This document shows, piece after piece, positions 19,677 to 64,000 of a DNA stretch of 64,000 nt; position 1 is the stretch's first letter, and every line of letters begins with the position of its first letter. Position numbers and translations under genes: made by a program. Below the pieces are notes generated by a model. That model had not been told where the DNA came from. It was given only the letters and a program-made list of their open reading frames with translations, and did no database searches. The stretch comes from Phyllobates terribilis (taxonomy: Eukaryota), in contig NW_027362762.1 in the NCBI RefSeq assembly GCF_046119375.1, positions 683,798,001 to 683,862,000 on the forward strand, in the 5' to 3' direction.

Positions 19677-21577
19677 TAGTGTTGAGCCACCCCCGTAGTG
19701 TTCGGGTTCGGTTGGGTTCGTCGAACACCGTGATGTTCGTGGAACTGTTCGTCGAACACCTTAGAACACCATCGAACACCGTCGAACACCGTTAAAACCA
19801 ATGGCAGACAAACAAAAACACATAGAAACACATAGAAAACACCTTCAAAGGTGTCCAAAAGCTGACAAACTGCTCAGAAGACACTCTCTTTAAAAAAGCC
19901 GGCCGGCAATTCAGCAGCGGCATACACCGGTACCCGACAATTTAGACAAGACGGAATAGAGCATCACACATAGATTAGATAGATAGAAACATGTCAGTCA
20001 AATATATAAGAAGTACAGTGACAGTGTTGCTTACTGTACTTGTCATTTAGTGTTAAAGTATTTATTTAAAAAAATAATAGTGTTTTCATGCACCGTCTCT
20101 TTAAAAAAGCCGGCCGGCAATTCAGCATCGGTACCCAACAATTTATAACAGAAAGAATAGAGCATCACACATAGATTAGATAGATAGAAACATGTCAGTC
20201 ACATATATAAGAAGTACAGTGAGAGTGTTCATTACTGTACTTGTCATTTTGTGTTAAAATAAAGGATTTATTAAAAAAAAAATTGGCGTGGGGTTCCCCG
20301 TAATTTTAGTCTCTAGCGGAGGTTAAGCAGGCAGCTGGGGCAGATGTTTGAAGCCTGGGAAGGGGTTAATACCCACGGAGCTTCCCAGGCTACTAATATC
20401 AGCCCCCAGCTGAATACCTAGCCTTTACTAGCTATTAAAATGGGGGACCCCCAAAAAGATGACATGGGGTCCCCCCTATTTTAATAGCTAGCAAAGGCTA
20501 GGCAGACAGCTGGGGGCTGATATTAATAGTCCAGGAAGGGTGCCATGAATATTGGCCCCCTCCCAGGCTAGAAACACCAGCCGTCAGCCGCCCCAGAAAT
20601 GGCGCATCCGTAGGATGCGCCAATTCTGGCACTTAGCCTCGCTCTTCCCACTGCCCTGTAGCGGTGGCAGTGGGGTAATAGGGCTGGAGTTGATGTCAGC
20701 TTATAATGCCAGCTGACATCAAGCCCAGGTTAGTAATGGAGAGGCGTCTATAAGACACCCCCTTTACTAACCCCATAGTCAAAGTTAAAAAAAAACACAA
20801 ACACCCAGAATAAAGTCCTTTAATTGAAATAAACACACAATTCTTTATTGTTCTAAATTAAACCATACTTACCGTCACGCCCATTCCAGCTGAAGCCAAC
20901 GATCTCCTGCAATAAAAGTAAAATAATAAAGCAACATCATCCTTACCTTTCCATGGTTCCCACGACAGCTTCAGCTCTGCTACATTCACATGACAGGCTG
21001 GAGCGCAGCAGAACGCTGCCATCCAGCTTGCCATGCGGCAGACACTGAGAAGGGCAGGCATGCTTGCGCTCCTCAGTAGTGTTGAGCCACCCCCGTAGTG
21101 TTCGAGTTCGGTTCGGTCCGTCGAACACCCGTGTGTTCGCCGAACTGTTCGTCGAACTGTTCGTCGAACACCTTCGAACACCGTTAAAACCAATGGCAGG
21201 CAAACAAAAACACATAGAAACACATAGAAAACACCTTCAAAGGTGTCCAAAAGCTGACAAACTGCTCAGAAGACACAACTAACACATGGAAAAGTGACAA
21301 GTACATATAGTCATGCGAAAAGAAAAGAGGTGGAGGAGTAAAAGGAGGGGGAGACACAGATATAGGCATGTCATGCCCTTCTAAAATCCAAAAAGTGAGA
21401 AGCCGAGACGGCCAGTCCGCTCCTGCCCGTGCCACCTCCGTGTCGCCGGGTTTGTGCCAGAGCCGCGGTGAACCCTGACGGCCAGCCCCCCTCTCCCAAT
21501 ACTGGTGCCTGTCCGCTGGTGGGTCGAGAGAGCCCCCCTGTGGTGGAGGCAGCTCTAAGCTTTTTAATTTAAATTGT

Positions 21578-21848
21578 CCCTCTAATTTGAATGAATACAC
21601 TTTAAATCCATTTACAAGGATCTATTGGAGGGCAAGTCTCATGCCAGCAGCCGCGTAATTCCAGCTCCAGTAGCGTCCACTAAAGCTGCTGCAGTTAAAA
21701 AGCTTTTATAAGGATCGAGCTCGGCTGTCCACCGCAAGGCATCCTAGTGCCAGTCCCAGCCCCTATGCCTTGGGGTGCCTCCTGATGCTCTTCACTAAGT
21801 ATCCCGTGGTCCCGAAGCATTTCCTTTGAAAAAATTAAGTGTCCAAAC
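21578..21848 (+). pseudogene. 18S rRNA gene fragment (~270 bp, 530-loop region into V4) inside the hAT element
   Basis: TGGAGGGCAAGTC..TGCCAGCAGCCGCGTAATTCCAGCTCC..GCTGCAGTTAAAAAGCT..CCCGAAGC..TTTGAAAAAATTA is colinear with vertebrate 18S as I recall it. Confidence 0.93.
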
Positions 21849-21959
21849 TACAGGTGGTGTAGCTTGCTTAACAGCCGGGATAATCCGCTGACTAGCAGAC
21901 ACTGCTACTAGGCACAAAGTATTTCCTGGGCTAGATGCAGTTAAAAATTTGTAAGTAGA

Positions 21960-23792
21960 TACTCTCGTTGGATGCTGAGAAAGCATTCCATAGAGTCTCC
22001 TGGCACGCCATATATGATTCTCTTAAAAAGCTTGGGGTAGGGGTCTAGGGGACCCTTTTATAGCCAAAATCACGGCCCTGTATCACAATACGTCACCTAG
22101 GCTGAAGATAAATGGAACTGTAGCACCGAGGGCTCGGTTGCTACAGACGTATTGCACCTCACCCAGAGGTGTGATATCTCACTCTCAGATAAGGATGGAG
22201 TGTGGATCAGGACCCGACACCTGCATGCATTACACCACATTGCCGTGGGGCAGGGCGACCAATATGCCCCTGAGATGGGCACGACAGTCCCTGTCCCTGG
22301 CTGGAGTGGGGGGAGGGAACACTGAGGAAGGGGAACCCTGCAGTGCAGGAGCAGGGAGGAAGCAGTTCCTGGGTGCATTGAGAAGGGAGTATAAAAGGTG
22401 GGCACCATCTTAGTTCAGTGCAGAGAAGTCTGAGCAGAAGTGGCAGGGAGCAGGGGCTCTGCATGAGCTCTGCTCCGGAGGCGGGCCTAGTAACAGAGGC
22501 CCAGGCCTGCAAGAGGGAGAAGGAAGGAAGAGGAGCGGAGAAGGCTCCAGGAACGAGGAATGAAGGGATCCCAGGGGTGCGGACGGGCGAGTCGCCACCG
22601 CATGCCCGAATCCACCTGCGTGGAGGGGTCAGGCCAAAGGGGGAGACCGGTCCCCGAACTAGTGGAGGCAGGAAACGACCCTCAGCTAGAAACCGGAGGC
22701 TCTGACATTTTATGTGGCGCAGCCCCTTGCTCCACCCGCTAGGAAGGCACCACATAGGGTCAGGGAAACTGGCGCCAAGTTTACCAAGAGGAGGCCCGAG
22801 GCAGCCGGACAGAAGTGTTGGTAAGAAAGGCCAGACAAAGGACACACAAAGGGGGTCCTGTGAAGCGCTCCAAAGTTATCTGGGAGTTGTCTGAGCCCCT
22901 CACCTGGTGAGCACAGTACGACGTGGGCAGCCGTTACCTGCAGACGTGGTCTGGATAATAAGAACTGTGAGTAAAGGCCCTGAACTGCATCACTGACTCC
23001 GTGTCGTTACTGCTGCTGCCCTGCACCATCACCCCCATCCTCCGCATACACTGCCCTGAGGCTATACTCCTCCCGTGGGGAGTTATGCTACGCTCTGCTG
23101 CACCCACAACACCAGCCTTAGCGGTCTGCCCTGTAGCGGCGGTTCACTCTGACCGCAATCCACGGGTGGCGTAGTCGGACATTTAAACATCAAAACCACA
23201 TAAATAGTTCCGCCACTGGTTTGACCGCCCTGAGCCACGGAACCGGATCGCCGCCACGAAGACTACAACCACCAGCATCCACCAAAAAGGGTCCGGCTCC
23301 GGGTGTCCCAAGGCCCAGGGGGTGCGTCAGAACATTTTCATCACCTTTCACAATCACCAATGGGACAAGGCAGGGATGTCCTCTGTCCCCTCTCTTATAC
23401 ATCCTAGTGACGGAGCACCTGCTCTCATCAATTCGCCATAACCCCAATATTAGGTGGATTGAGGTGGGAGGCACCGAGTACAAGTGCTCTCTATTTGCTG
23501 ATGATGTCCTAGTATATATCACTCAATCACATATATCCATCCCTGCTGTTATGGCTGAAATAGATCACTTTGTTACATGGTAAAATTTTAAAATCAATGC
23601 AGCGAAGTCTGAGGCCCTCGATGTCTCCCTCCCTAAATCCATATAGGATTCCATCCAGTCCAACTTTCCCTTTGCCTGGCCCTCACAGGGTATCAAATAC
23701 TTAGGAATTCCTATTCATAGAGACCTCTCCCATCTATGTTATCTTAATTTTGGGCCCTTTATTGAACAATTCCATACAGACCACGGTTGGCA
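21960..23792 (+). pseudogene. Internal L1-clade ORF2 reverse transcriptase fragment split by a solo LTR
   Basis: SLDAEKAF, GTRQGCPLSPLL, LFADD and IKYLGI motifs. The reading continues across the LTR (LKING|TFSSPF). Confidence 0.9.
22119..23329 (+). mobile_element. Gypsy-type solo LTR (1211 bp)
   Basis: TG...CA ends, 4-bp TSD GAAC (22115-22118 and 23330-23333), TATAAAA at ~22390, and 3' part homologous to the LTR at 46485. Confidence 0.92.
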
Positions 23793-26700
23793 AGTTGGAA
23801 CTGTGAGATTCACTACGTGCACCACTGGTATTTTGTGGAAAAGCACATGTAAGATTCTGCAACAGTCTCTGCTGATACTCCTGCATGCGTGCATCCCTTT
23901 CTATGGCAGGAATAATTTCTGCAAATTTACTTTTGTACCGGGGATCTAACAGTGTGGCAACCCAGTAGTCAGGATTATTTCTAATTCTCACAATTCGAGG
24001 GTCATGTTGCAGGTAGTGCAGCAAGAAGGCACTCATGTGTGTTGCGCATCCAGGAGCACCAAGTCCCTGTTGTGTTGGTGGCGAGGTAACAATCATGCTT
24101 CCTTCCTCTGTCCTCTCCCCCCAACCTCGCACAACAGAAATGTGATCAAGGTCTCCTTCATCTGATGAGTCTTCCATCAGTTCGTCCTCCACTTCTTCCT
24201 GGGCTCCTGCACCTTCCTCACTAGTTTGGCTGCTACCATGCGCCCTGGTAAAATCATCTCCCCCACCCTCACATGCCTGCCGCCCTGGTGCTGCCGACCG
24301 TCTGGACCTTGCAGATGTTAGCCCTTCCACATACAACTCCTCCTCCTCTACTTCCTCCACCTCCTCTTGTGCCACCACCTGACTCCGAATTCTGTTTAAC
24401 ATGTGCTCCAGCATGTAAATCACCGGAATAGTCATGCTGATAATGGCATCGTCAGCACTAAACATCTTCGTCGCCATTTCAAAACTGTGCAGAAGGGTGC
24501 ATAGGTCCCTGATCTGAGACCACTCCTCCAGCGTGATTTGCCCCACCTCTGAATCTCGTTGGCCCAGGCTATACGTCAGAACGTATTGCACCAGGGCTTG
24601 TCGGTGCTGCCACAGTCGCTGCAACATGTGCAGAGTTGAATTCCACCGGGTAGGCACATCGCATTTTAGCCGGTGAAGTGGCAGGCCCAACAACTTCTGT
24701 AGAGATGTAAGTCGCTGAGCTGCGGGATGCGAACGGCGGAAGTGAGCACACAGCGACCGTGCTCTCTGCAGAAGGCCATCTAGTCTGGGATAGTGGGCTA
24801 AAAATTGCTGGACAACCAGGTTCAACACGTGAGCCATACAAGGCACGTGTGTGACATTGCCCCGGCGAAGGGCCGCACCCAGGTTTGCAGCATTGTCGCA
24901 CACGGCCTTCCCTGGTTTCAGGTCCAGTGGAGACAACCATTCATGAAATTGGTTCTCCAGAGCTGACCACAACTCCTCAGCTGTGTGACTCACATTTCCC
25001 AGACATTTCAATGTAAAAACCGCCTGATGACGTTGAGCCCTACTGCCAGCATAGTAAGGAGGTGTGCAGGATCCCTTCTGCGCAGTTAGAAAGCTTGTGG
25101 CATGACCAGACAGGCTTTGGGTACAGGTGGAAGACCGAGAGGAGGTTGAGGAGGCAGAAGCAGTGGAGGAAAAATGACATAAAGAGGATTGACGCACAAC
25201 TCGTGGGGACGGCAAGACTTGGACAGCAGCCCCTTGTCCTGCTGTCACCATAGTTACCCAGTGCCCAGTCAGCGACATGTAACGCCCCTGTCCATGCCTA
25301 CTCGTCCAAGTGTCTGTGGTGAAATGCACCCTGTCACACACAGAGTTTCTCAAAGAAGCGGTGATGTTGTGTGCGACATGCTGGTGGAGCGCAGGCACAC
25401 CTTTCTTTGAGAAGTAGTGCCGACTGGGCATCTGGTACTGGGGCACTGCGACGGACATAAGGTCTCGAAAATCCTCTGTGTCCACCAGGCGGAAAGGCAG
25501 CATTTCTGTAGCCAAGAGCTTGCAGATGGTGAAATTCAACCTCTTAGCTTTCTCATGGCTAGGAGGAAATGGTCTTTTACTTGTCCACATCTGAGGGACC
25601 GAGGGCTGGCTATTGTGCTTAGACGGGGTTGATAAGGGTGTCCCCGGCAAACTGCCGGTCTGTGAGGAAGATGCAGGCGGACATGTTAGGTTGCCTTGAT
25701 CCAAAGGTGGTGCTATCGATGTCGGACAGCGCTCAAGACCAGCTGGTGTTACCACCTCCAAAGAAAATGATGACCTGCCAATCACTCTGGCTGTTGCGGG
25801 TAAAGAGGTGGCAGGTCTGCGCCCCAAAACAGGTGTGACTGCTGTCCCCCCAGTCACAGAGGATGAAGAGGCCGCGGATGCACAAGATATGGCAGACGGT
25901 GGTTGGCCCGGCCGGCTAGACCGCATTGTAGCACACTGAGCTTCCCACTGCAACTTATGCTTCATGTCCATGTGCCGGTTCATGCATGAAGTACTCAAAC
26001 TATGTATTTTTTGGCCTCTACTTAGCTTTTGCTGACAAATGTTACAGATAACACGAGTTGGGTCATCTTTATCGATCTGAAAAAATGCCCAGGCTATGCA
26101 AGGCTTAGCACCCATGCGACCTGAAGAGCCACCACGTCTTGTGGTGAGAGGCAGAGTTGTGTTTGAGGATGCAGTTGTTGACGTGCTTCCAGTACTACGT
26201 CTCTGTCCAGGAAGGCGCAACCTGACCTCGTCGTCACTAGCATCTTCCTCCACCTCCTCTGCTGACCTCATCTCTTGGCTGACTGTGGGTTGACAGTAAG
26301 TGGGATCTCCGACCTCATCATCATCACCCTGTGCGTTATCACACCCGTCGTCCTCAGAGCCAACCTGTTCCTGCCCTGACAAAAAACTAAAGTTGTCGCT
26401 CCAATCAGGTATTTGAGTCTTATCATCGTCTTCCTCATTGTCTCCACCAACAGGAGTTACAGTTTGGGAATGAGGGTCTACATTATGGTCAGAACCTTCT
26501 GCGTCTGGTCCTGGATCCGACTCATAAAGATTCTGGGCATCAGTGCAGATCATTTCCTCGTCTGGATTCACAGAAGCGCTGGAGTCGACCTCTGATTCCC
26601 AGGATATAGTATGAGTAAACAGCTCTGCAGACTCAACCATCTGTTCTACCTCATACTCAGACGGGCAGCTGGAGATTTGGGAGCTGTGAGGAAGCAAGTG

Positions 26701-26870
26701 CGATTTGGGTGACACCTTTGAGGACTGGAGTATTTGTGATGTTGAAGTTGATGTGGATGAGAGCCCACTTAAAGGAGCACTTGATATCCGTTGAAGCACC
26801 TGCTGTTTTTGTGCCGCATCTGGAATTTGTAGCGATTAGCGTGGCCGTAAGAAAGGGATCTTATCACATT
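23793..26870 (-). pseudogene. hAT transposase with BED zinc finger; in-frame stop at 26836-26838 and truncated C-terminus
   Basis: WAFF..CNIC..RHMDMKH, TTDTWTS, CDNAAN, CMAHVLNL, CDVPTRWNST and ATLLDPRYK. The region carrying the catalytic Glu and dimerisation domain is absent. The last ~20 aa of the ORF-track product are antisense L1. Confidence 0.92.
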
Positions 26871-27121
26871 GTCCGCTAAAAGAAGTAGACATTTTAGTTT
26901 GGCTGGAAGATGGTCTTTCTTCTGCACCTACCCCACGGACACAACCTTTTTTCCCCTTCCCAACACGCCTATTCCCCTTTCCACCAGCAGCAGGCCTTTT
27001 TCCACTCATTTTGGTGGTTAACTAATTCACAACTCTGGAGTTGTTTGCACAAAAAAACAATGGATGGTAACCGAGCAGAGCTGAGTGGCCAAACTGTGGT
27101 ATTAGGCCAAAACTATTGGCT

Positions 27122-29100
27122 GGGTTAGATGCAGAAAAAAATTATTTTTAATTTGCAACCTGATGGAGGTCAGTATAGATGGACTAATAGACCAAGTCCC
27201 ACACACCGCTAGAAGCCCAAATATTTTTTCAGAGCTACATGCAGAAATTTTTTTTATTCAATTTGCAACCTGATGGAGGTCAGTATAGATGGACTAATAG
27301 ACCAAGTCCCACACACTGCTAGAAGCCCAAATATTTTTTCAGAGCTAGATGCAGAAAAAAATTATTTTTAATTTGCAACCTGATGGAGGTCAGTATAGAT
27401 GGACTAATAGACCAAGTCCCACACACCGCTAGAAGCCCAAATATTTTTTCAGAGCTAGATGCAGAAAAAAATTATTTTTAATTTGCAACCTGATGGAGGT
27501 CAGTATAGATGGACTAATAGACCAAGTCCCACACACCGCTAGAAGCCCAAATATTTTTTCAGAGCTAGATGCAGAAAAAAATTATATTCAATTTGCAACC
27601 TGCTGGAGGTCAGTATAGAAGGACTAATAGAACAAGTCCCACACACTGCTAGAAGCCCAAATATTTTTTCAGAGCTAAATGAAGAAAAAAATTATTTTTA
27701 ATTTGCAACCTGATGGAGGTCAGTATAGATGGACTAATAGACCAAGTCCCACACACTGCTAGAAGCCCAAATATTTTTTCAGAGCTAGATGCAGAAAAAA
27801 ATTATTTTTAATTTGCAACCTGATGGAGGTCAGTATAGATGGACTAATAGACCAAGTCCCACACACTGCTAGAAGCCCAAATATTTTTTCAGAGCTAGAT
27901 GCAGAAAAAAATTATTTTTAATTTGCAACCTGATGGAGGTCAGTATAGATGGACTAATAGACCAAGTCCCACACAGCGCTAGAAGCCCAAATATTTTTTC
28001 AGAGCTAGATGCAGAAAAAAATTATATTCAATTTGCAACCTGCTGGACGTCAGTATAGAAGGACTAATAGTACAAGTCCCACACACTGCTAGAAGCCCAA
28101 ATATTTTTTCAGAGCTAGATGCAGAAAAAAATTATTTTTAATTTGCAACCTGATGGAGGTCAGTATAGATGGACTAATAGAACAAGTCCCACACGCTGCT
28201 AGAAGCCCAAATATTTTTTCAGAGATAAATGAAGAAAAAAATTATTTTTAATTTGCAACCTGATGGAGGTCAGTATAGATGGACTAATAGACCAAGTCCC
28301 ACACACTGCTAGAAGCCCAAATATTTTTTCAGAGCTAGATGCAGAAAAAAATTATTTTTAATTTGCAACCTGATGGAGGTCAGTATAGATGGACTAATAG
28401 ACCAAGTCCCACACACCGCTAGAAGCCCAAATATTTTTTCAGAGCTAGATGCAGAAAAAAATTATATTCAATTTGCAACCTGCTGGACGTCAGTATAGAA
28501 GGACTAATAGAACAAGTCCCACACACTGCTAGAAGCCCAAATATTTTTTCAGAGCTAAATGAAGAAAAAAATTATTTTTAATTTGCAATCTGATGGAGGT
28601 CAGTATAGATGGACTAATAGACCAAGTCCCACACACTGCTAGAAGCCCAAATATTTTTTCAGAGCTAGATGCAGAAAAAAATTATTTTTAATTTGCAACC
28701 TGATGGAGGTCAGTATAGATGGACTAATAGACCAAGTCCCACACACCGCTAGAAGCCCAAATATTTTTTCAGAGCTAGATGCAGAAAATTTTTTTATTCA
28801 ATTTGCAACCTGATGGAGGTCAGTTTAGATGGACTAATAGACCAAGTCCCACACACTGCTAGAAGCCCAAATATTTTTTCAGAGCTAGATGCAGAAAAAA
28901 ATTATTTTTAATTTGCAACCTGATGGAGGTCAGTATAGATGGACTAATAGAACAAGTCCCACACGCTGCTAGAAGCCCAAATATTTTTTCAGAGCTAGAT
29001 GCAGAAAAAAATTATATTCAGTTTGCAACCTGATGGAGGTCAGTATAGATGGACTAATAGAATGATGCTATGCCCAAAATATTTTACTTCACTAGGTGCA
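27122..29100. repeat. 110-bp tandem array, ~18 units, upstream of the hAT transposase
   Basis: TG(A/C)TGGA(G/C)GTCAGT recurs at 27161, 27271 ... 29031, exactly every 110 bp. Confidence 0.97.
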
Positions 29101-29978
29101 GTAAAAAAATTGGTATTCTATACACAGGTGGTATATCTTGCAACACAGATAGGCTACTCCACTGACTAACACACTCTGCAATAGGCCAAAAAGGATTAGC
29201 TTTGCTAGATTCAGCCAAATGCTGTGAAAAAAACTTGCACAGCACTGGCACAGACCTGCCTGGCAAAAACTGATAGGAATTGATGTAACTTAGTCCTGAA
29301 AAGGACTCCAATTACAATTAGTCTTTACTCCCACAATCTATCTATTTAAGAGCACAGACCTGCCTGATAAAAGTCGTAGGAAATGCTGTAACCTAGTCCT
29401 TAAAAGGACTGCAATCACAACTATTCCCTACTCCCAAGCTATCTGTAGATTTGTGCGAAAATTGGCTTGAAATTAACAAGGTATAGCGCACACAGCAATA
29501 GCGGTGCCGTCTAACACGCAGCTGCAGCAGTGAGAAAATGGTGGCGATGGGGAAAATGGCTTGGTCTTATAGGGCAAGGACATGTGACATACACTGCCAA
29601 TCACACATGCCCTTGCTTGTGTGAAAAAAAGCACTTCGCTCCGTGTGTGCGCTGCTGATAGGCTGACAGATTGCACCTCCCCACTGCAAATGCGGGAAAG
29701 AGAAAAAAAAATGGAGATCTTCATTGTTCCTGCAGAGATCCATCCCCTGCCCCTCCCCCCGCCCCGCTGTACACTCAAACTGCGTATTAACATTAATTTT
29801 CATCATTACTGAGAAAAAATCCAGTTATGATTTTGGTGCACGAACAGTTATCGAACATAACCTCGAACAGCCGAATTTTTCTCAAATTGTTCGTGTTCGC
29901 CGACCGGCTCGAACACCGCCCAAAACAGCTCGAATTTGAGATTGGCGAACAGTTCGAGTAGAACAACGCTCATCTCTA

Positions 29979-30486
29979 CTCCTCAGTGTCTGGCTGTGAC
30001 GGTATAAAGATGAGCCGAGGTCATGTCCAATGAACTCAGCTCACCTCATGCACATCACTGACAGCGTGGGAAAATTCTCCTGCGCATGCGGTGAGTGCAG
30101 GAGAATTTTCCCATGCTGTCAGTGACGTGCATGAGGTGAGCTCATGTCCAATGAACTCGGCTCACCTCATGCACGTCACTGACAGCGTGGGAAAATTCTC
30201 AGCGCTCAGCGCTTCAGCAGGAGAATTCTCCCACGCTGGAATGGCATTGAGATGGCAGGCTGGATGGCAGCTGAGCGCTGCCATCCAGCCTGCCATCCTT
30301 CATAGACACATGTTCATTGGACATGAGCTCACCTCATGCTCGTCACTGACAGTGTGGGAAAATTCTCCTGCACTCACCGCATGCGCAGGAGAATTTCCCA
30401 CGCTGTCAGTGACGTGCATGAGGTGAGCTGAGTTCATTGGACATGACCTCGGCTCATCTTTATGCCGTCACAGCCAGACACTGAGG
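29979..30486. repeat. Nested palindrome forming the centre of the foldback element
   Basis: CTCCTCAGTGTCTGGCTGTGACGG...CCGTCACAGCCAGACACTGAGGAG, with internal hairpins. Confidence 0.9.
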
Positions 30487-31552
30487 AGCGCAAGCATGCC
30501 TGCGCTTCTCAGTGTCTGCCGCATGGCAAGCTGGATGGCAGCGTTCTGCTGCGCTCCAGCCTATCATGTGAATGTAGCAGAGCTGAAGCTGTCGTGGGAA
30601 CCATGGAAAGGTAAGGATGATGTTGCTTTATTATTTTACTTTTATTGCAGGAGATCGTTGGCTTCAGCTGGAATGGGCGTGATGGTAAGTATGGTTTAAT
30701 TTAGAGCAATAAAGAATTGTGCCTTTATTTCAATTAAAGGACTTTATTCTGGGTGTTTGTGTTTTTTTTTTAACTTTGACTATGGGGTTAGTAATGGGGT
30801 GTCTTATAGACGCCTCTCCATTACTAACCTGGGCTTGATGTCAGCTGGCATTATAAGCTGACATCAACCCCAACCCTATTACCCCACTGCCACCGCTACA
30901 GGGCAGTGGGAAGAGCGAGGCTAAGTGCCAGAATTGGCGCATCCTATAGATGCGCCATTTCTGGGGTCGCTGACGGCTCGTGTTTCTAGCCTGGGAGGGG
31001 GCCAATATTCATGGCACCCTTTCTGGGCTATTAATATCAGCCCCCAGCTGTCTGCCTAGCCTTTGCTAGCTATTAAAATAGGGAGGACCCCACATCATTT
31101 TTTTGGGGGTCCCCCATTTAAATAGCTAGTAAAGGCTAGGCATTCAGCTGGGGGCTGATATTAGTAGCCTGGGAAGCTCCGTGGGTATTAACCCCTTCCC
31201 AGGCTTCAAACATCTGCCCAAGCTGTCTGCTTAACCTCCGCTAGAGACTAAAATTACGGGGAACCCCACGCCAATTTTTTTTTTAATAAATCCTTTATTT
31301 TTACACTAAATGACAAGTACAGTAATCAACACTATCACTGTACTTCTTATATATGTGACTGACATGTTTCTATCTATCTAATCTATGTGTGATGCTCTAT
31401 TCTTTCTGTTATAAATTGTCGGGTACCGATGCTGAATTGCCGGCCGGCTTTTTTAAAGAGACGGTGCATGAAAACACTAATATTTTTTTTAATAAATCCT
31501 TTAACACTAAATGACAAGTACAGTAACCAACACTGTCACTGTACTTCTTATA

Positions 31553-33180
31553 CAGTACAGACCAAAAGTTTGGACACACCTTCTCATTTAAAGATTTTTC
31601 TGTATTTTCATGACTATGAAAATTGTACATTCACACTGAAGGCATCAAAACTATGAATTAACACATGTGGAATTATATACTTAACAATAAAGTGTGAAAC
31701 AACTGAAAATATGTCTTATATTCTGGGTTCTTCAAAGTAGCCACCTTTTGCTTTGATGACGGCTTTGCACACTCTTGGCATTCTCTTGATGAGCTTCAAG
31801 AGGTAATCACCGGAAATGGTCTTCCAACAATCTTGAAGGAGTTCCCAGAGATGCTTAGCACTTGTTGGCCCTTTTGTCTACACTCTGCGGTCCAGCTCAC
31901 CCCAAACCATCTCGATTGGGTTCAGGTCTGGTGACTGGAGGCCAGGTCATCTGGCGTAGCACCCCATCACTCTCCCTCTTGGTCAAATAGCCCTTACACA
32001 GCCTGGAGGTATGTTTGGGGTCATTGTCCTGTTGAAATATAAATGATGGTCCAACTAAACGCAAACCGGATGGAATAGCATGCCGCTGCAAGATGCTGTG
32101 GTAGCCATGCTGATTCAGTATGCCTTCAATTTTGAATAAATCCCCAACAGTGTCACCAGCAAAGCACCCCCACACCATCACACCTTCTCCTCCATGCTTC
32201 ACAGTGGGAACCAGGCATGTAGAGTCCATCCGTTCACCTTTTCTGCGTCGCACAAAGACACGGTGGTTGGAACCAAAGATCTCAAATTTGGACTCATCAG
32301 ACCAAAGCACAGATTTCCACTGGTCTAATGTCCATTTCTTGTGTTCTTTAGCCCAAACAAGTCTCTTCTGCTTGTTGCCTGTCCTTAGCAGTGGTTTCCT
32401 AGCAGCTATTTTACCATGAAGGCCTGCTGCACAAAGTCTCCTCTTAACAGTTGTTGAAGAGATGTGTCTGCTGCTAGAACTCTGTGTGGCATTGACCTGG
32501 TCTCTAATCTGAGCTGCTGTTAACCTGCGATTTCTGAGGCTGGTGACTCGGATAATCTTATCCTCAGAAGCAAAGGTGACTCTTGGTCTTCCTTTCCTGG
32601 GGCGGTCCTCATGTGAGCCAGTTTCTTTGTAGCGATTGATGGTTTTTGCAACTGCACTTAGGGACACTTTCAAAGTTTTCCCAATTTTTTGGACTGACTG
32701 ACCTTCATTTTTTAAAGTAATGATGGCCACTTGTTTTTCTTTACTTAACTGCTTTTTTCTTGCCATAATACAAATTTTAACAGCCTATTCAGTAGGACTA
32801 TCAGCTGTGTATCCACCAGAGTTCTGCACAATACAACTGATGGTCCCAACCCAATTTATAAGGCAAGAAATCCCACTTATTAAACCTAACAGGGCACACC
32901 TGTGAAGTGAAAACCATTTCCGGTGACTACCTTTTGAAGCTCATCAAGAGAATGCCAAGAGTGTGCAAAGCAGTCATCAAAGCAAAAGGTGGCCACTTTG
33001 AAGAACCTAGAATATAAGACATATTTTCAGTTATTTCACACTTTTTTGTTAAGTATATAATTCCACATGTGTTAATTCATAGTTTTGATGCCTTCAATGT
33101 GAATGTACAATTTTCATAGTCATGAAAATACAGAAAAATCTTTAAATGAGAAGGTGTGTCCAAACTTTTGGTCTGTACTG
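31553..33180 (-). mobile_element. Second DD38E Tc1-like copy
   Basis: TA-CAGTACAGACC...GGTCTGTACTG-TA; same family as 1104-2733. Confidence 0.95.
31716..32766 (-). pseudogene. DD38E transposase with a 2-bp deletion near 31935
   Basis: Open from MARKKQ through FQQDNDPKH; the frame shifts after TWPP. Confidence 0.92.
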
Positions 33181-33578
33181 TATATGTGACTGACATGTTT
33201 CTATCTATCTAATCTATGTGTGATACTCTATTCTTTCTGTTCTAAATTGTCGGGTACCGGTGTATGCCGCTCCTGAATTGCCGCTTTTCATGTTTCACTG
33301 TGAGCAGTGTTCCCACCGATTTGGGCAACCACTGTAATGCCACAACCACCAAGGCTGTGACATTACAGTGAGTGGCAGACAATCCCTGCATGATTGGTGC
33401 TCTAAATAGCGCCAGACATGCAGGACACGCTTTTAGTGCACGAACAGTTATCGAACATAACCTCGAACAGCCGAATTTTTTGCAAATCGTTTGCGTTCGT
33501 CGAACGACTTGAACACCGCCCAAAACAGCTCGAATTTGAGATTGGCGAACAGTTCTAGTCGAACACCGCTCATCTCTA

Positions 33579-47730: not shown

Positions 47731-47956
47731 GAAGACGCCGCGCGGGAAGAAGAGGGGCGTGGACTCCGAAAGCGCGCGAGAACTGAAGCTCCGCCTCACG
47801 TCCGGACGTTGCGTAAGGTCCTGGAAGGAGCCCAGCAGACGCTGACGTCACAGGAGCGCGACGGAAGGTCCTCAACCCTGACGATCCACTGCGGAACCGC
47901 GGCCTACGGAAGAGGATCATCGCAAGGTAGGCCACGGTCCACTAGGGGGGAGGAGG

Positions 47957-48937: not shown

Positions 48938-48971
48938 AGGGCCAACCCCCAGGAATAAGATCACCAGGCCC
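48913..48971 (+). promoter_or_regulatory. Predicted -1 programmed ribosomal frameshift signal
   Basis: T TTA AAC in gag phase, an 8-nt spacer, stem CCTGGGG/CCCCAGG, and a second helix GGGCC/GGCCC. Confidence 0.8.
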
Positions 48972-51900: not shown

Positions 51901-53049
51901 GTTGTCGTCCCCGTCAAGGACTTAACGGCTCAAACAGCAGCTAGAGCCTTCCAGCAGCACTTCTGCCGTCCACACGGATACCCAGAGCAGGTGCTGACGG
52001 ACCAGGGACCTGCCTTTGAAGCGGAAGTCTTCCAGGAGTTCTGTACTCTGTATGGCTGCCGGAAGATAAGAACAACACCCTATCATCCGCAAACCAATGG
52101 GCTCTGCGAGAAAATGAACCAGGTGGTGATAGATCTTCTGAAAACATTGCCCCTGGAAGAACGCAATCTGTGGCCTGAGAAACTGCCTGATCTGGTGGAC
52201 CTATACAACCACATCCCGGTAGGTTCTACCAACTGTACCCCGGCTTACCTAATGAGAGCAAGACCTGGTAAGCTTCCTGTTGATCTGGAGATGGGAGTTC
52301 TGACACCTGAGGACACTTCACCAGAAGCAGACTGGGACACAGAAAGGCAGCAGCAGTACCGGAAAGTACAGGAGAGCGTGGAGCGAAGTCTCTGTCAAGC
52401 TAGAGAAAGACAGGAGAAGACTTACAACCAGTGTGCTCCCGCTGTTCCCCTGGTACCTGGAGAGCAGGTCTTGAAGAGGAAGAGACGGCTCCACAAGTTG
52501 GACGACCAGTGGGAGAAGGACCCGTACACCGTACTGCCCTCAAGCCATGAGAACCCGAAAGTCTGCACAATCAGTAAGGATGGAGGAGAAACCACAGCCA
52601 TTGTATCCCGAGATCACCTGAAGAAGTGTCCCGAACAGCTACGGAACCCTGAAGAAGAACAAGAAGACCCTCGACCCGCAGAGGAAAGGGAAGATATGGT
52701 CAGTACTGTGCTCGGAGACTTCCCTCGGTCTTGGACTCAAGTCAATGGCGCTGTTGTGGTACCCGTCCTCACCTTCCTCCAACCAGCATCCCAAGTGCCT
52801 ACGGAGAAACAGGTAGAGCTGGAAGAGCAGCCGGTCCAGGAGGCAGAAGACCCCACACAAGCAGACCAGGAGGATCAACCCTCTGCGTATAGTGAGCCTG
52901 CCGTACCCCTAGTGAGCCAAAGAGCCCGTAGACAGCTGCCCAGTTTACCTTTGACAGCTCCTACACCTGGTAGCTCAGGACCAGTCAGTCAGCTCCGTAG
53001 GTCCACTAGAGCCACTAGAGGCCAGTTGCCCGTACGTTGGAGGATCTAG
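48916..53049 (+). CDS. pol: Pol polyprotein (protease, RT, RNase H, integrase) in the -1 frame relative to gag
   Basis: LLDTGS; PWAAP; YLDN (YxDD altered); TDAS/E/TDNNPL; HHCC; D, D(35)E; GPY/F-like tail; no chromodomain seen. Confidence 0.93.
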   Translation, partial: KLAQPGVEGQPPGIRSPGPSNWRDKYVGGRPVLPVVLDGIPMSALLDTGSQVTTIPYVLFKQYWNDSDITRYPDDDLSIIASNGQPVPQIGFKEMTIKVGRVELAAQGLIIVDIDKRESHPKITLGTNVIENCLAEVIFILQQVAKNASSGQQRVLQKEIRALMRRQQVELSGGEIGSVRMCDPFPIAMPPKSEMMIWCRAAIGLRGRDYQAMVEPIYSDSRPTILTARGVVDVRHGRVPVRIINIGKREVYLPRYATLAKLYTINQNSVQAVEPLPPSQPEEGNGSKKPMEDWCQQLHLGTDSTPSHQKQGVYRVVQEYERVFSKHPLDFGRVKGVEHHIPTGDHPPIKERYRPVPPAHYQHAKGMLRDMKEAGVIRDSCSPWAAPLVLVKKKDNTMRMCVDYRKINRITHKDAYPLPRIEESLAALKSANFFSTLDLTSGYWQVPVAEADREKTAFTTPMGLSEFTCMPFGLCNAPGTFQRLMECCLGHRNFETVLLYLDNVIVYSKTYEDHLKHLAEVFEALANYGLKVKPSKCHLLKPKVQYLGHVVSADGVAPDPDKITAIKEWPSPSSVKEVRQFLGLVGYYRRFIPGFTKKAAPMQDLLIGQSRKAKNQKPPFRWEKLEEESFRQLKMALTGDEILAYPDYSQPFILYTDASNIGLGAVLSQIQQGKERVIAYASRKLRPTERNPENYSSFKLEFLAVVWAVTERFRHYLASSRFTVYTDNNPLTHLDTARLGALEQRWMARLSNYEFTIKYRAGRSNTNADALSRMPNLPDVGEDPEELEEVELPAFHRHGTIQYSHRVRGKQSATFNPLPHYNWAEMQDSDPAVRLVKEMLTQPDARLDPDAPEEAKQLWVEKSRLFLYKGKLCRRMVNSRTHELIWQVVVPRRDAAMVLEAYHDGAGHFGWKKLEFLLRGRFHWVGIRGTIERWCRDCGPCNLRRKDRASQKTPLQSIVTKQPLELVALDHVKLTPSRSGYVYALTIVDHYSRFLVVVPVKDLTAQTAARAFQQHFCRPHGYPEQVLTDQGPAFEAEVFQEFCTLYGCRKIRTTPYHPQTNGLCEKMNQVVIDLLKTLPLEERNLWPEKLPDLVDLYNHIPVGSTNCTPAYLMRARPGKLPVDLEMGVLTPEDTSPEADWDTERQQQYRKVQESVERSLCQARERQEKTYNQCAPAVPLVPGEQVLKRKRRLHKLDDQWEKDPYTVLPSSHENPKVCTISKDGGETTAIVSRDHLKKCPEQLRNPEEEQEDPRPAEEREDMVSTVLGDFPRSWTQVNGAVVVPVLTFLQPASQVPTEKQVELEEQPVQEAEDPTQADQEDQPSAYSEPAVPLVSQRARRQLPSLPLTAPTPGSSGPVSQLRRSTRATRGQLPVRWRI

Positions 53050-53402
53050 GTGTTTAGACTGTTTATTTGTATTTATCTGTTTTCTGTTACTTGTAAATAA
53101 TTGTGTATTTCTAGTTATGTTATAGATGTCGTTTATGGATTATCCGGAATCCTTTGTACATATGTTGGAGCGTAACCCAGGAAAGGACTAAGACTGTTAA
53201 GGACTCGGGGTAGGACAGACCCCTACCTGGTTACGGCTTCCGGTCTCATGGTGAAATGGACACCTTAGTTTTCTTCAAAGACTGCACCCGGTTGCGGACA
53301 TTCCGTGACCATCCTAATGTGTTTTTCTTTATTGTACTGTTTCTGTTTTTACTTGTTATGTTTTATAAAAATATGTTTAGTCCCGGAGTACTAAATTTCA
53401 CT

Positions 53403-53411
53403 AGGGGGGAA
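53403..53411 (+). promoter_or_regulatory. Polypurine tract
   Basis: AGGGGGGAA immediately before the 3' LTR. Confidence 0.85.
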
Positions 53412-54444
53412 TGTGGCACCCCAGGGGTCTGGTTTCCACAGTAATAGCAATATTACGTCTGTGAGCAGGTGGGAGGTTTCCTGGTCAGACATCCTATGCA
53501 TGCCACACCTCCTGCCCAGTCCTGGGAGGGGAAGAACTTCCCCTATATAAAGCTGGGGCTGAGGCAGGGTTAGAGAGTAGAGAAAGAGTGAGAGAACACA
53601 GACAGAGACACAGTCTGGTCTGTAGTGGGGCAGCTTTAGGAACAAGAAAGATCAGGAGCTCTGTGGGAGCTGTGCTAAAAAGAGATCAGGGGCTGGAAGC
53701 TGTAGAGCTCGCCCTGATTGAAGAGTTCTTACCGGACCCGGGGTCCGAGGCTGTGGGGACTAATCCTTACCCAGCAGCAGAAACCGCCCGGCAGGGGATT
53801 TCAGGTCCTCTGGCCAAGAAACCCGAAGGCACGGTCACACGCAAGGGACCAGCACCGCGACGTGGAGCGGAAGTTACCAAAAGGCCCCGAGTCACCGGCC
53901 ATACGGGTGAGCACCACACGGTACACTCAGGGACGTGGGCTACTTTTACCCGCCTCTAGCAAGGTAGCCAGAAGAGTACGATTAGTTGGGGAGGCCTACA
54001 ACTCCGCCTGGCCAGGGGAGATCCCATCAGCTCACGGACTGACCAGGCCCCGATCGCTAGCCAGTACTCCGGGAGGGTCTACCTTGTCACCAGTAAAGAC
54101 CCAAAACTACACCGCACCGTCTCTGAGTGGTTCCTGCTACCCCCCTTCAAACACGTCGGCTGCCCTGAGGCCATACCCCTCCCGTTGGGGGTTATACCAT
54201 CCCCGCTGCACAACCGTATCACCGGCCTCAGCGGTCTGCCCTGCAGCGGCGGTCTCATGACCGCATTCAACGGGTGGCGTAGTCGAACATTCTAAACATC
54301 TACTGCTAAATACTGCCGCTCAGTTTGACTCCCTGGGCACGGACCGGGTCACCGCCACGAGGACTACTACCCCCAACAGATCCGGCTCCGGGTATTCCCC
54401 GCGTGTGCAACGCTGCACCACAGCACAGGCCCAGTAGCGCGTCA
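53412..54444 (+). repeat. 3' LTR
   Basis: About six substitutions versus the 5' LTR, counted by eye. Confidence 0.97.
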
Positions 54445-58380: not shown

Positions 58381-59633
58381 AGCCATCAGTTGGAGGCTAC
58401 TAAGGGGTCAGTATACTGTGTGGGGTACTATACAGTGAGGGAGCATTATACTGTGTATAGGAGAGCATCATACTGTGTAGAGGGGAGCTGTACATGGGGG
58501 GAGACTCAAGACATTTTTTAATGTTAAGTGGGCACTTATCGTTATAGGGGAACTCAGGTTATTATGACTGTCAAAGGGGCACACAGAGGGCATTATTACT
58601 TTCAAGGGGGGAAAATGTGGGCACTGTTTTCTAGGGCACTTGCACACGGCATTACTATATTCTAAAGGTTTGTTTAACCATCTAGAGGGCGCAAAGCAGG
58701 TGCAGTAATAGGAACACATACGGCAGCGACTCAGTATTGGGGTATCAGCAGGATGAGGAGTTTGTGCAGGTTGGGAATAGATGGGGATGGGGCCTGAAAT
58801 GTAAGGAGTCAAATGTGTCTTTGTTGTGATCTCTGCAGACCTGAGACTGAGTCCTGGATGGAGGAGTTGTCGTGTTGGTCTGGGCCAGATGGAAAAGACA
58901 GGAAAAATGAACAATTTAATCGGAAAGAACGTCAGCTGTATGTTACAATATATAACCGTGCTGTGATCGCTTATATGTTCTGCAGGACTGGAATCTATCA
59001 ATTTATGTCACCATATGGTGGTAGTATCAGTGCTGGTTTTGGTATAGAGATTATTTTTAGTAACAGCGCCGTCATCTGCTGACGTTTTCCAAAATCCACT
59101 ATCTGGGTGCCCCACCATAGCTGTAATCAGGGTTACCTGGTAAGGGGCCCATTCAGAATCCTAGCTACGCCACCGCTCAGAGGTGATCTAATTTACCTGT
59201 GTGGTCAATACAATGTACTAGCACATGTTTTCTTTCTTCCAAGGACCTTAAAAAGGTGAACATTAGTGATGAGCGAGCGTACTCACCACTGCTTGTTACT
59301 CGCTCGAGCATCACCCTGTTCGACATGCTCGGCGACTATTTCCGGGGTTGCTCGGGCAGGTGCTTTGGTCCCCGCCCTGCATGTTTGGCGCTCTTTAGAG
59401 AGTCAATGAATATGCAGGGATTGTCTGCCACGCACTGTAATGCCGTAGCCATGTTGGTTATGGCATTACAGTGATTTTCTTGCCGCATAGCATCATTGGG
59501 TCTATATAAGACCTGGTGACGCTAGGCAAGTCACAGTCTATCCTGGAAACAGGCAGAGTAGGGAGAGGTGCTGCTGTGTGAGGGACAGAATTGGAGGTGT
59601 AATAGTTACATATAGGTAGCGGTACTCCAGGAG

Positions 59634-59662
<29 letters not shown>
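59634..59662. repeat. (TA)n microsatellite
   Basis: Direct observation. Confidence 0.95.
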
Positions 59663-59666
<4 letters not shown>

Positions 59667-59699
59667 ATCTGAACAAACAGTCCTTAGTATCGAGGGTGG

Positions 59700-60125
59700 A
59701 AAATATTGTCTTTTTAAAACCGTTGGCGTCCGACAGACGTATCACATATAACTGCGGTACAAATACAGCCATTTGTAGCGAGCGTGGAAAATATTGTCTT
59801 CCATTTACAGTTTGTAGCAGTGTGTCAGTGAAGCTTTTCACATGTGGTCGCTGTGAATAATAGGAAACTACAAGCTCGCTACTTAAAACCGTTGGCGTCC
59901 ATCAGACGCATCACATATAACTGCGGTATAAATCCAGCCATTTGTAGCGAGCTTGGAAAATATTGTCTTCCATTTACAGCTTGTAGCAGTGTGTCAGTGA
60001 AGCTATTCACACATGGTCGCTGTGAATAATAGGAAACTACAAGCCTGCTATTTAAAACCGTTGGCTTCCGTCAGACGTATAACATATAACTGCGGCACAA
60101 ATCCAGTGATTTGTAGTGAACGTAG
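59700..60125. repeat. 169-bp tandem repeat, ~2.5 units, upstream of the hAT transposase remnant
   Basis: AAAACCGTTGGC at 59716, 59885 and 60054. Confidence 0.85.
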
Positions 60126-61189
60126 TGCTTGCGCTCAAAATATTGCCTTTAAGGCTCGTGGAGACGGAAGCTTTCCGCAACCTGAAGGCGATGGCCGTCC
60201 CTCGGTACTCAGTCCCCAGACACCACTATTTCTCCGTCCCCGCATTACACAAGCACGTGTCCCACAACATTAGCCGTGCCCTCAACCACGCAGTTACTGG
60301 GAAGGTCCACCTAACCACAGACACGTGGACAAGTGCTTGTGGGCAGGGATGGTACATCTCGCTGACGGCACACTGTGTTAATATAGTGGAAGTTGGGACC
60401 CTTGGGACGTATCATGTCCTCCTGATGCTGAGGATTGCAGGCACTGGGTCAATCAGGGTTTGCCCTCCACATTCTACAGCTCCTGCACCTCCTCCTCCTC
60501 TTCTTCAGCCTCCATCTCCGAAATGCTCACGTAAGTCAGAAGCTGGAAACACTGCAGCACTGCCTCGGCCAAGCGGCAACAGGCTGTGCTGAAGCTAATA
60601 TGCTTAGGTGACAAACCCCACACTGCTGAAGAGTTGTGGACATCTCTGAAAGAGAAGGCAGATCTTTGGCTGTCATCCCTGAACCTACGGCCAGGCATGA
60701 TCGTGTGTGACAATGGCCGGAACCTGGTGGCGGCTCTGAAGCAAGGCGGGCTCAGACACGTACCGTGCCTTGCCCATGTGCTTAACCTCATGGTTCAGCG
60801 TTTTCTCAAAACCTACCCAGATCTGCTTGTCAAAGTACGTCACGTGTGTGCCCATTTTAGAAATGCAGCTCCAGCTTCCGCCGACCTTGCTGTGATTCAG
60901 CAGCATTTGCAGCTTCCAGCTCACCGACTGTTGTGCGATGTCCCCACACGTTGGAACTCAGATTGCAGATGTTGGGAAGGATTTGTGAACAGCACAGGGC
61001 AGTTGTTCAGTACCAGCTTCAAAACGTCCGTCGGTATTCAGGTCAGCCTCCACACATAAGAGCTGAGGAGTGGGCATGGATGTCAGACATCTGTGCCGTC
61101 TTCCAAAACTTTGAGGACTGCACCAAGATGGTGAGTGGCGATGATACCATAATTAGCATCACCATCCCGCTTCTCTCTCTTCTGAATAA

Positions 61190-61445
61190 GAAAAATAACT
61201 AAATAACTAAATAAGAAAAAGTTCTTTACAGTTAGAGTTATCAAACTGTGGAATGCTCTGCCACAAAAGATAGCATTAGCAGATACTTTATCTGCATTTA
61301 AAAAAGGGCTGGATGCTTTTCACAAAACTAATTGTATTGTAGATTATAAAAACAGTAATCTAGTCCTTGATAATGTTTAGCTTCTCGAGGAAGATTGAAT
61401 TTGATGGACAAGTGTCATTTTTCAACCTATGTAATTTCTTTATGT
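61190..61445 (+). mobile_element. CR1-clade LINE 3' end
   Basis: FFTVRVIKLWNALP-like tail, then ...TTTTTCAACCTATGTAA. Confidence 0.75.
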
Positions 61446-61976
61446 GCTTTAAAGATGAAATTTTATTATTATAATCAGTGCTGAGCCACCCCCGTAGTGT
61501 TCGAGTTCTGTTCGGTTCGTTGAACACCCATATGTTCGCCAAACTGTTCGTCGAACTGTTCGTCGAACACCTTCGAACACCGTTAAAACCAATGGCAGGC
61601 AAACAAAAACACATAGAAACACATAGAAAACACCTTCAAAGGTGTCCAAAAGCTGACAAACTGCTCAGAAGACATAACTAACACATGGAAAAGTGACAAG
61701 TACATATAGTCATGCGAAAAGAAAAGAGGTGGAGGAGTAAAAGGAGGGGGAGACACAGATATAGGCATGTCATGCCCTTCTAAAACCAAAAAAGTGTGAA
61801 GCCGACACGGCCAGTCCGTTCCTGCCCGTGCGACCTCCGTGTCGCCGGGTTTGTGCCAGAGCCGCGGTGGACCCTGACGGCCAGCCCCCCTCTCCCAATA
61901 CTGGTGCCTGTCCGCTGGTGGGTCGAGCAAGCCCCCCTGTGGTGGAGGCAGGTCTAAGCTTTTTAATTTAAATTGT

Positions 61977-62246
61977 CTCTCTAATTTGAATGAATACACT
62001 TTAAATCCTTTTACAAGGATCTATTGGAGGGCAAGTCTCATGCCAGCAGCCGCGTAATTCCAGCTCCAGTAGCGTCCACTAAAGCTGCTGCAGTTAAAAA
62101 GCTTTTATAAGGATCGAGCTCGGCGGTCCACCGCAAGGCGTCCTACCGCTAGTCCCAGCCCCTATGCCTTGGGGTGCCTCCTGATGCTCTTCACTGAGTA
62201 TCGCGGGGTCCCGAACCATTTCCTTTGAAAAAATTAAGTGTCCAAA
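61977..62246 (+). pseudogene. 18S rRNA fragment, copy 2
   Basis: Same block as 21578-21848. Confidence 0.93.
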
Positions 62247-62517
62247 CTACAGGTGGTGTAGCTTGCTTAACAGCTGGGATAATCCGCTGACTAGCAGACA
62301 CTGCTACTAGGCACAAAGTATTTCCTGGGCTAGATGCAGTTAAAAATTTGTAATTAGATACTCTCGTTGGATGCTGAGAAAGCATTCCATAGAGTCTCCT
62401 GGCACGCCATATATTATTCTCGTAAAAAGCTTGGGGTAGGGGTCTAGGGGACCCTTTTATAGCCAAAATCACGGCCCTGTATCGCAATACGTCACCTAGG
62501 CTGAAGATAAATGGAAC

Positions 62518-63709
62518 TGTAGCACCCCGAGGGCTCGGTTGCTACAGAGGTATTGCACCTCACCCAGAGGTGTGATATCTCACTCTCAGGTAAGGATGGA
62601 GTGTAGATCAGGACCCCGACACCTGCATGCATTACACCACATTGCCGTGGGGCAGGGCGACCAATATGCCCCTGAGATGGGCACGACAGTCCCTGTCCCT
62701 GGCTGGAGTGGGGGGAGGGAACACCGAGGAAGGGGAACCCTGTAGTGCAGGAGCAGGGAGGAAGCAATTCCTGGGTGCATTGAGAAGGGAGTATAAAAGG
62801 TTGGCACCATCTTAGTTCAGTGCAGAGAAGTCTGAGCAGAAGTGACAGGGAGCAGGGGCTCTGCATGAGCTCTGCTCCGGAGGAGGGCCTAGTAACAGAG
62901 GCCCAGGCCTGGAAGAGGGAGAAGGAAGGAAGAGGAGCGGAGAAGGCTCCAGGAACGAGGAACGAAGGGATCCCAGGGGTGCGGACGGGCGAGTCGCCAC
63001 CGCACGCCCGAATCCACCTGCATGGAGGGATCAGGCCAAAGGGGGAGACCGGTCCCCGAAACTAGTGGAGGCGGGAAACGACCCTCATTTTATGTGGCGC
63101 AACCCCTCGCTACACCCGCTAGGAAGGCACCACATAGGGTCAGGGAAACTGGCACCAAGTTTACCCAGAGGAGGCCCGAGGCAGCCGGACAGAAGCGTTG
63201 GTAAGAAAGGCCAGACAAAGGACACACAAAGGGGGTCCTGTGAAGCGCTCCAAAGTTATCTGGGAGTTGTCTGAGCCCCTCACCTGGTGAGCACAGTATG
63301 ATGTGGGCAGCAGTTACCTGCAGAAGTGGTCTGGATAATAAGAACTGTGAGTAAAGGCCCTGGACTGCATCACTGACTCCGTGTCGCTACTGCTGCTGCC
63401 CTGTACCATCACCCCCATCCTCCACATACACTGCCCTGAGGCTATACTCCTCCCGTGGGGAGTTATACTACGCTCTGCTGCACCCACAACACCAGCCTCA
63501 GCGGTCTGCCCTGCAGCGGCGGTTCACTCTGACCGCAATCCACGGGTGGCGTAGTCGGACATTTAAACATCAAAACCACATAAATAGTTCCGCCACTGGT
63601 TTGACCGCCCTGAGCCACGGATCCGGGTCGCCGCCACGGAGACTACAACCACCTGCATCCACCAAAAAGGGTCCGGCTCCAGGTGTCCCAAGGCCCAGAG
63701 AGCGTGTCA
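62518..63709 (+). mobile_element. Solo LTR, copy 2, at the identical site in the L1 fragment
   Basis: TSD GAAC (62514-62517 and 63710-63713). Confidence 0.92.
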
Positions 63710-64000
63710 GAACATTTTCATCACCTTTCATAATCACCAATGGGACAAGGCAGGGATGTCCTCTGTCACCTCTCTTATACATCCTAGTGACGGAGCACCT
63801 GCTCTCATAAATTCGCCATAACCCCAATATTAGGTGGATTGAGGTGGGAGGCACCGAGTACAAGTGCTCTGCATTTGCTGATGATGTCCTAGTATATATC
63901 ACTCAATCACATATATCCATCCCTGCTGTTATGGCTGAAATAGATCACTTTGTTACATGGTCAAATTTTAAAATCAATGCAGCGAAGTCTGAGGCCCTCG

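Follow-up and report, generated by a model that had tools for sequence, protein, structure and literature searches.

A composite hAT transposon carrying 18S rRNA, L1 and solo LTR sequence appears to have moved as a unit in the poison frog Phyllobates terribilis

The 64,000-nucleotide stretch of Phyllobates terribilis DNA analyzed here (the window) contains two copies of a hAT transposon with a composite cargo, made up of a decayed 18S rRNA fragment, a piece of an L1 reverse transcriptase (RT) and a solo LTR. While copy A is complete, copy B runs off the window (Table 1). A preliminary description had proposed that hAT transposition carried the entire composite in one piece. Our results support this: the match between both copies starts exactly at the terminal inverted repeat (TIR), the flanks are unlike, copy A has a target site duplication (TSD) and an empty site, and the divergence is even along the match. 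Contigs of the host species fit movement as a unit as well, since the cargo is about as deep in them as the transposase. Unit transposition is the best-supported reading of the A/B duplication, with copies A and B as independent members.

Table 1. Features of composite copies A and B in the window (positions are those of the window)
Feature	Position	Strand	Remark
Copy A: complete composite hAT, 8902 bp	21077..29978	-	TIRs and TSD
Copy A TSD CTCCTCAG, left	21069..21076	.	perfect 8-bp match with right
Copy A TSD CTCCTCAG, right	29979..29986	.	perfect 8-bp match with left
Empty site: single CTCCTCAG	30481..30488	-	sister arm of host foldback element
Copy A right TIR (11 bp) and subterminal region, GTTCG/CGAAC repeats	21077..21400	-	
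GC-rich (69%) segment, hAT 3' region or cargo	21401..21560	.	
Copy A decayed 18S rRNA fragment	21577..21848	+	Rfam profile
Copy A spacer: hAT-type 5' repeat unit	21850..21949	.	
Copy A L1 RT fragment, left	21955..22118	+	
Copy A solo LTR, 1211 bp, GAAC TSD, TATAAA at 22390	22119..23329	+	antisense to transposase
Copy A L1 RT fragment, right; meets hAT ORF at 23781	23330..23780	+	
hAT transposase frame, 1076 codons	23781..27009	-	stop at codon 58
110-bp tandem array, 17.6 copies, hAT 5' region	27126..29061	.	
Copy A left TIR, TAGAGATGAGC on minus strand	29968..29978	.	9/11 match with right TIR
Copy B: right end and cargo, runs off window	61476..64000	-	self-alignment with copy A
Copy B left 8-bp flank ATTATAAT, predicted TSD	61468..61475	.	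partner outside window
Copy B right TIR CAGTGCTGAGC	61476..61486	.	2 changes from TAGTGTTGAGC
Copy B decayed 18S rRNA fragment	61976..62247	+	model positions ~470-785
Copy B spacer: hAT-type 5' repeat unit	62249..62348	.	74-79% like copy A's upstream repeats
Copy B L1 RT fragment, left of LTR	62354..62517	+	frameshift common with copy A
Copy B solo LTR, TG..CA	62518..63709	+	GAAC repeats 62514-17, 63710-13
Copy B L1 RT fragment, right of LTR	63710..64000	+	self-alignment, RT profile

Copy A shows the hallmarks of the hAT superfamily. Its short TIRs start with (T/C)AG and are accompanied by subterminal repeats, with 7-11 GTTCG/CGAAC motifs per end, while CTCCTCAG stands on both sides as an 8-bp TSD. 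In the sister arm of the foldback element that hosts it, the same sequence runs on uninterrupted and contains CTCCTCAG once, which serves as an empty-site control. The asymmetry between the two TIRs recurs at 19677 and 33578. Counted from the right TIR, the order of parts is subterminal region, 160 bp of GC-rich sequence, 18S, spacer, L1, solo LTR, L1 and transposase. The region around copy A (18376-33660) is an apparent four-level nesting: the foldback element (20005-31552) hosts copy A in one arm and lies inside an older short copy of the composite's own hAT family (19677..33578, ends 90-91% like copy A), which in turn sits inside an element that is presumably Tc1-like. Two Tc1-type copies at 1100-2740 and 31549-33187 are 96% identical and have TIRs of ~276 bp and TA flanks.

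By self-BLAST of the window, 21078-23620 matched 61477-64000 with 95.8% identity over 2547 columns. The alignment places the start of homology at base 1 of the hAT TIR (21077 and 61476), as had been claimed, and among 36 flank bases aligned upstream of it 25 are mismatches. The flanks were also correctly described as unlike, with a foldback arm next to copy A and, next to copy B, a 3' end that we take to be CR1-like from its translation. This CR1-like 3' end cuts a second hAT family, frameshifted and on the plus strand (59264-61475), and copy B follows directly after its tail. Over the 2521 aligned bases, 82 substitutions separate the two copies (3.25%, or 2.4% without CpG-type changes), together with 4 indels, every one inside the solo LTR, in agreement with the scattered substitutions and small indels reported before. 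Relative to copy A, the solo LTR of copy B has a 23-bp deletion. Divergence was homogeneous across 8 segments (chi2 p=0.13; non-CpG p=0.40), and the substitutions are spread evenly over the hAT, 18S, L1 and LTR parts, which is expected if these parts aged together. Divergence in the TIR region does not significantly exceed that of the cargo, and the TIR form TAGTGTTGAGC, from which copy B departs, is present in copy A and at 19677. The 18S block, the L1 piece and the solo LTR at its GAAC site are all common to both copies, as first noticed. If copy B was transposed, its far end would carry a GCTCATCTCTA-like TIR followed by ATTATAAT; this TIR and the partner TSD would lie beyond position 64000, and the TSD is shown for copy A alone.

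The cargo consists of pieces of different origin. The 18S piece is recognized in both copies by its Rfam profile (RF01960, E 8e-16 and 2e-14). It comprises ~270 bp of a 1831-position model and shows 81-83% identity to a full 18S reference (L001). With this reference, the difference of 17-19% exaggerates or blurs how far the piece has actually decayed. Between copies A and B, the piece differs by just 3.8%. The full length and the intact conserved core of a functional 18S gene are absent from it. A ~100-bp hAT-type 5' repeat piece separates 18S from L1; joints from 21949 back to 21886 in the contigs suggest that it comes from a related hAT in which units of ~67 bp are repeated in tandem. A GC-rich 160-bp segment (21401-21560 in copy A, 61800-61959 in copy B) separates the 18S piece from the hAT end. 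In copy A, neither Rfam nor six shuffle tests against the 18S piece, the LTR and the ORF (p 0.04-0.65, uncorrected) gave a clear match for it. By eye, an 11-bp inverted match was seen between its end (21556-66) and a site inside the 18S piece (21695-705).

The L1 piece yields an RVT_1 match (E 7e-11), and four of its best five PDB matches are named LINE-1 ORF2 protein. Its frame is continuous once the LTR is skipped, and a frameshift is common to both copies, with no indel among the variant rows listed there. It is cut inside the RT at both ends and has neither a 3' tail nor a TSD. An independent L1 insertion or an rRNA-L1 chimeric retrocopy has a 3' end with poly(A), a TSD and the RNA piece joined directly to L1. 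Both were rejected given the missing tail, the missing TSD and the spacer between 18S and L1, and a Tx1-type targeted insertion was rejected on the same grounds. The solo LTR is of Gypsy type, with TG..CA ends, GAAC on both sides and no internal region. Over 232 bp it is 78% identical to the LTRs of another element in the window (46484-54444, domain order RT-RH-IN), and because the pol frame of this related element is on the plus strand, we judge the solo LTR to point antisense into the transposase. The element at 46484-54444 is a young full-length LTR retrotransposon with 99.4% identical LTRs, a 4-bp TSD (TATA) and a 1448-codon open frame whose RT, RNase H and integrase domains follow the order typical of Gypsy. 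The composite had been proposed to act as a cut-and-paste vehicle for rDNA, LINE and LTR promoter sequence. What is carried of rDNA and LINE are decayed fragments, and the LTR promoter is a putative one.

The transposase frame of copy A contains a BED finger (PF02892, E 3e-10) and two Asp motifs, and thereby the BED finger and DDE core homology of the hAT superfamily. A protein search gave 57 matches, mostly named BED-domain or hAT proteins, the best being from poison frogs; the top relatives are poison-frog BED-domain proteins with 79% identity over 449 aa. In two protein searches, no relative was at least 90% identical over the full length and none had the chimeric tail. P0058, the nearest protein with a full C-terminus, is 68% identical and runs ~150 aa beyond the copy A frame. 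This additional part spans PF05699 and the SERVF motif and aligns to Hermes (E 2e-11). The Glu of the SERVF motif is catalytic in hAT transposases. A profile search found no PF05699 in the copy A frame, which lacks the last ~150 aa, the catalytic Glu among them, and is therefore unable to encode an active enzyme. The ~2.2 kb of cargo substitute for the end of the transposase gene and do not merely split it. The composite is non-autonomous, as previously stated, yet it is no small element but a near-full-length hAT disabled by its cargo. The stop at codon 58 is the sole one in the copy A frame and is private, as 99.5-99.8% of depth reads Gln, and the frame was therefore open when the family spread. 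A C2-domain protein model of Ranitomeya imitator (P0063) starts with ~70 aa of the composite family's transposase (87% over 61 aa); this chimera is probably an annotation fusion.

Sequencing runs of the host species allow an estimate of abundance. In 16 runs from four studies, 0.79-0.98 of the words of 21860-27100 were present; in two other organisms (B and C) the values were 0.17-0.18. Contigs of four runs (X1, X5, X9 and X10) were placed on the 5.2-kb L1-LTR-transposase stretch. The 18S piece lies outside this stretch, and we infer from copies A and B that it is family-wide. X1 and X5 are DNA contig sets from which the window DNA itself may have been assembled; 192,666 of 25.9 M records (X1) and 168,423 of 48.6 M (X5) fell on the stretch. 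Summed depth over 30 bins varied 1.9-fold (X1) and 2.4-fold (X5), with the bin 23085-23259 raised by other LTR families, and the median depth of the cargo was 0.81 (X1) and 1.09 (X5) times that of the transposase. Records that lay only partly on the stretch numbered 1885 (1.0%) in X1 and 3254 (1.9%) in X5. Among the best 15 of 186 joints, four skip the LTR and amount to 0.02% (X1) and 0.12% (X5) of local depth; the LTR-free joint 22114>23330 occurs in at least 2 (X1) and at least 6 (X5) contigs. The low-depth joints 21904>26587, 21949>26612 and 23329>24500 may represent shorter deletion derivatives of the composite. Among the best 24 of 2906 loose ends, those at 23781 involve at least 65 (X1) and at least 53 (X5) contigs. 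Translated by hand, they give ten open codons resembling the continuation of P0058, so uninterrupted hAT elements exist in the host species. A 779-nt contig in X10 has 406 unlike letters past 23781.

Of the A/B substitutions, 52 lie in this range. Copy B has the majority allele (59-99%) at all seven A/B-differing sites among the best 40 of 181 variant rows; neither copy is therefore simply the other's parent, and they belong to different sub-lineages. Assuming that no base is counted more than 31 times, and taking the depth of the most diverged pieces as that of a single copy, the computed floor is about 1,200-10,000 copies of the composite, a figure to be read as an order of magnitude because summed contig depth does not equal copy number. 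From contig depth we infer a high-copy family of roughly 10^3-10^4 copies, beyond a two-copy pair. The contig sets X9 and X10 are either unlabelled or guessed to be RNA. Depth varies 10-16 fold in them, and their main alleles are rare in X1 and X5, a pattern that transcripts from one or few copies would fit. Contigs of these two runs bridge the spacer/L1 and both L1/LTR junctions, and the L1/hAT junction was bridged by none of the 32 pieces listed of 201,765.

Taken as a whole, we consider block capture, mobilization in trans and high-copy spread the probable explanation of these data. A young intact frog hAT copy would have lost its last ~150 transposase codons, and the lost end would have been replaced by ~2.2 kb copied from elsewhere in one template-switch event (gap-repair or FoSTeST-like). 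At the breakpoint near 23781, an imperfect 4-nt match was read by eye. The donor was probably a mosaic of repeats in which an old 18S scrap, a repeat unit of a related hAT and an L1 fragment with a solo LTR inside were already present. We lean toward the view that the young hAT took up this already old mosaic block in one step: the cargo was already decayed at a time when the transposase frame was still open, which favors one capture of an old block over three acquisitions. Of the earlier proposal that three kinds of foreign sequence were acquired before transposition, a cargo that preceded the spread agrees with our reading, while three separate acquisitions are less likely. Both TIRs and the subterminal repeats are kept, which would allow the catalytically dead composite to be excised and inserted in trans by uninterrupted relatives, making 8-bp TSDs. 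It would then have passed through several master lineages to its present number of copies, about equal to or above the uninterrupted form, with the cargo and the truncated frame as presumable passengers.

Unit transposition would be equally real if the cargo had been gained stepwise inside the element, the 18S piece coming before the L1 and a Gypsy-type insertion, later reduced to a solo LTR, coming last. The LTR-skipping joints at 22114>23330 could be pre-LTR composites, 18S-only forms may account for the joints that lead from the spacer to 26587 and 26612, and nested insertion is common in the window. However, such intermediates are rare, and free L1s or later deletions explain them equally well. 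An L1 that is cut inside the RT at both ends, with neither tail nor TSD, also speaks against a stepwise history. Furthermore, the 18S piece is far decayed and the L1 frameshifted, yet 1076 neighboring codons are open without a sign of selection, while 10-17% neutral decay of the frame would be computed to leave 13-22 stops. We thus regard stepwise gain as rather unlikely. That there were few unit moves, and that the flat high depth reflects independent, equally abundant hAT, L1 and LTR families, appears quite improbable. In its favor, summed depth does not equal copy number, one bin is raised by other LTR families, no listed contig bridges the L1/hAT junction, and the joint and loose-end counts of X1 and X5 are minimum counts. 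However, joints that skip the LTR would be expected from free L1s, and loose ends at 22119 and 23329 from free LTRs, while LTR-free joints and partial records are as scarce as given above, and depth stays within 2.4-fold over the 30 bins in two runs. Least probable is that a segment was duplicated locally, or that two hAT copies at a distance of 40 kb underwent ectopic gene conversion. Copies A and B are close and in the same orientation, and the far end of copy B is outside the window. In contrast, the match breaks exactly at TIR base 1 with no common flank, the TIR region shows no significant excess of divergence over the cargo, and the A/B differences occur at 59-99% among ~100 or more contigs each, which is impossible from two loci.

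A further possibility is that the truncated transposase or the antisense LTR was selected as a repressor of the family and aided its spread. The frame was open at the burst, the BED finger is kept and the sense strand of the LTR runs antisense into the ORF. A precedent exists in KP of Drosophila, which has an internal deletion and is a shown repressor of P elements through its polypeptides; like the composite, it is described as a defective derivative of a TIR element, with the potential to encode a shortened transposase that keeps the DNA-binding end (PMC4938643). Unlike for KP, no selection on the truncated frame of the composite was detected: among 27 listed sites, with the adjacent sites 25172-74 excluded from the per-site count, the intermediate-frequency sub-lineage variants in the frame were 3 synonymous and 8 non-synonymous, compared to a neutral expectation of 26% synonymous (p=0.58, n=11). 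This ratio is neutral within a small sample, and selection is therefore no explanation for the open frame. In addition, the dominant central contig in X10 has a stop at codon 766 of the transposase frame. Consequently, we consider a repressor role doubtful. One might also speculate that the dead 8.9-kb composite overtook its autonomous parent and seeded thousands of solo LTR, L1 and 18S pieces with identical junctions by cut-and-paste alone, while the predicted LTR promoter antisense into the transposase spread silencing (antisense RNA/piRNA) and ended the burst; we think of this as an unlikely course of events.

Maize Ds elements with filler DNA and the Pack-MULE and Pack-TYPE elements of plants are non-autonomous TIR derivatives whose inner sequence was replaced by copied DNA and which are moved in trans. 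The composite differs from them in its animal host, in its rRNA and solo LTR cargo and in keeping most of the transposase frame. With hAT elements of the Hermes/Ac type it shares the 8-bp TSD, the short TIRs, the subterminal repeats and the BED finger; unlike these, copy A is without the C-terminal domain carrying the catalytic Glu. Another comparison is offered by Tx1 in Tx1D of Xenopus laevis, an arrangement also named 'composite Tx1C'. Both cases involve a frog DNA transposon with a non-LTR retrotransposon inside, and Tx1 is described as inserting repeatedly and target-specifically into a non-autonomous piggyBac (PMC4494074). In contrast, the composite has one L1 fragment without tail or TSD that is inherited with the hAT.

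A close parallel is offered by Pack-TIRs, which were defined by Tan et al. (2021), with four multicopy cases reported in animal reference genomes and a median cargo of 224 bp (PMC8277862). One of these, Pack-hAT-N8_XT of Xenopus tropicalis, is a multicopy hAT Pack-TIR with three derived copies. Like the composite, it is a frog hAT with captured non-TE DNA between its ends, and the Xenopus copies are found at distinct TSDs (PMC8277862). Capture by template switching, as given for Pack-TIRs in the same source, is proposed for the composite too. However, the composite has ~2.2 kb of cargo, mostly other TEs plus rRNA, in a near-full-length element with apparently thousands of copies. Pack-TIRs carry non-TE sequence between their ends, which in the composite is the 18S fragment, while the rest of the cargo is mostly TE-derived. 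In its sequence organization, the composite thus seems to work like a multicopy Pack-TIR; strict membership is incomplete, as no parental copy was identified and there is one TSD. In the literature, we found no description of the composite family or of a hAT with 18S, though Dfam/Repbase and supplements may hold a consensus. A term search of the main text of the poison-frog genome papers PMC11152451 and PMC6278860 gave no mention of 18S or rRNA.

While the class of mechanism is already known, the apparent scale and the cargo of the composite would be its unusual part. One capture event, once multiplied, would leave what look like solo LTRs, L1 pieces and 18S scraps in the thousands, and these may be misread as independent events. 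In amphibians, solo LTRs have been used as a signature of deletion by ectopic recombination (PMC11562844), so families like the composite could bias such counts. L1 counts and 18S hits, as they enter rDNA copy estimates, FISH and metabarcoding, would be affected too. Fixed composite junctions, in turn, may serve as markers for the dating of bursts and for population work. Multicopy Pack-TIRs are reported as rare and low-copy in animal reference genomes, with the four cases mentioned above (PMC8277862). In contrast, if the composite indeed has thousands of copies, size and junk cargo need not limit the success of a TIR element in large frog genomes.
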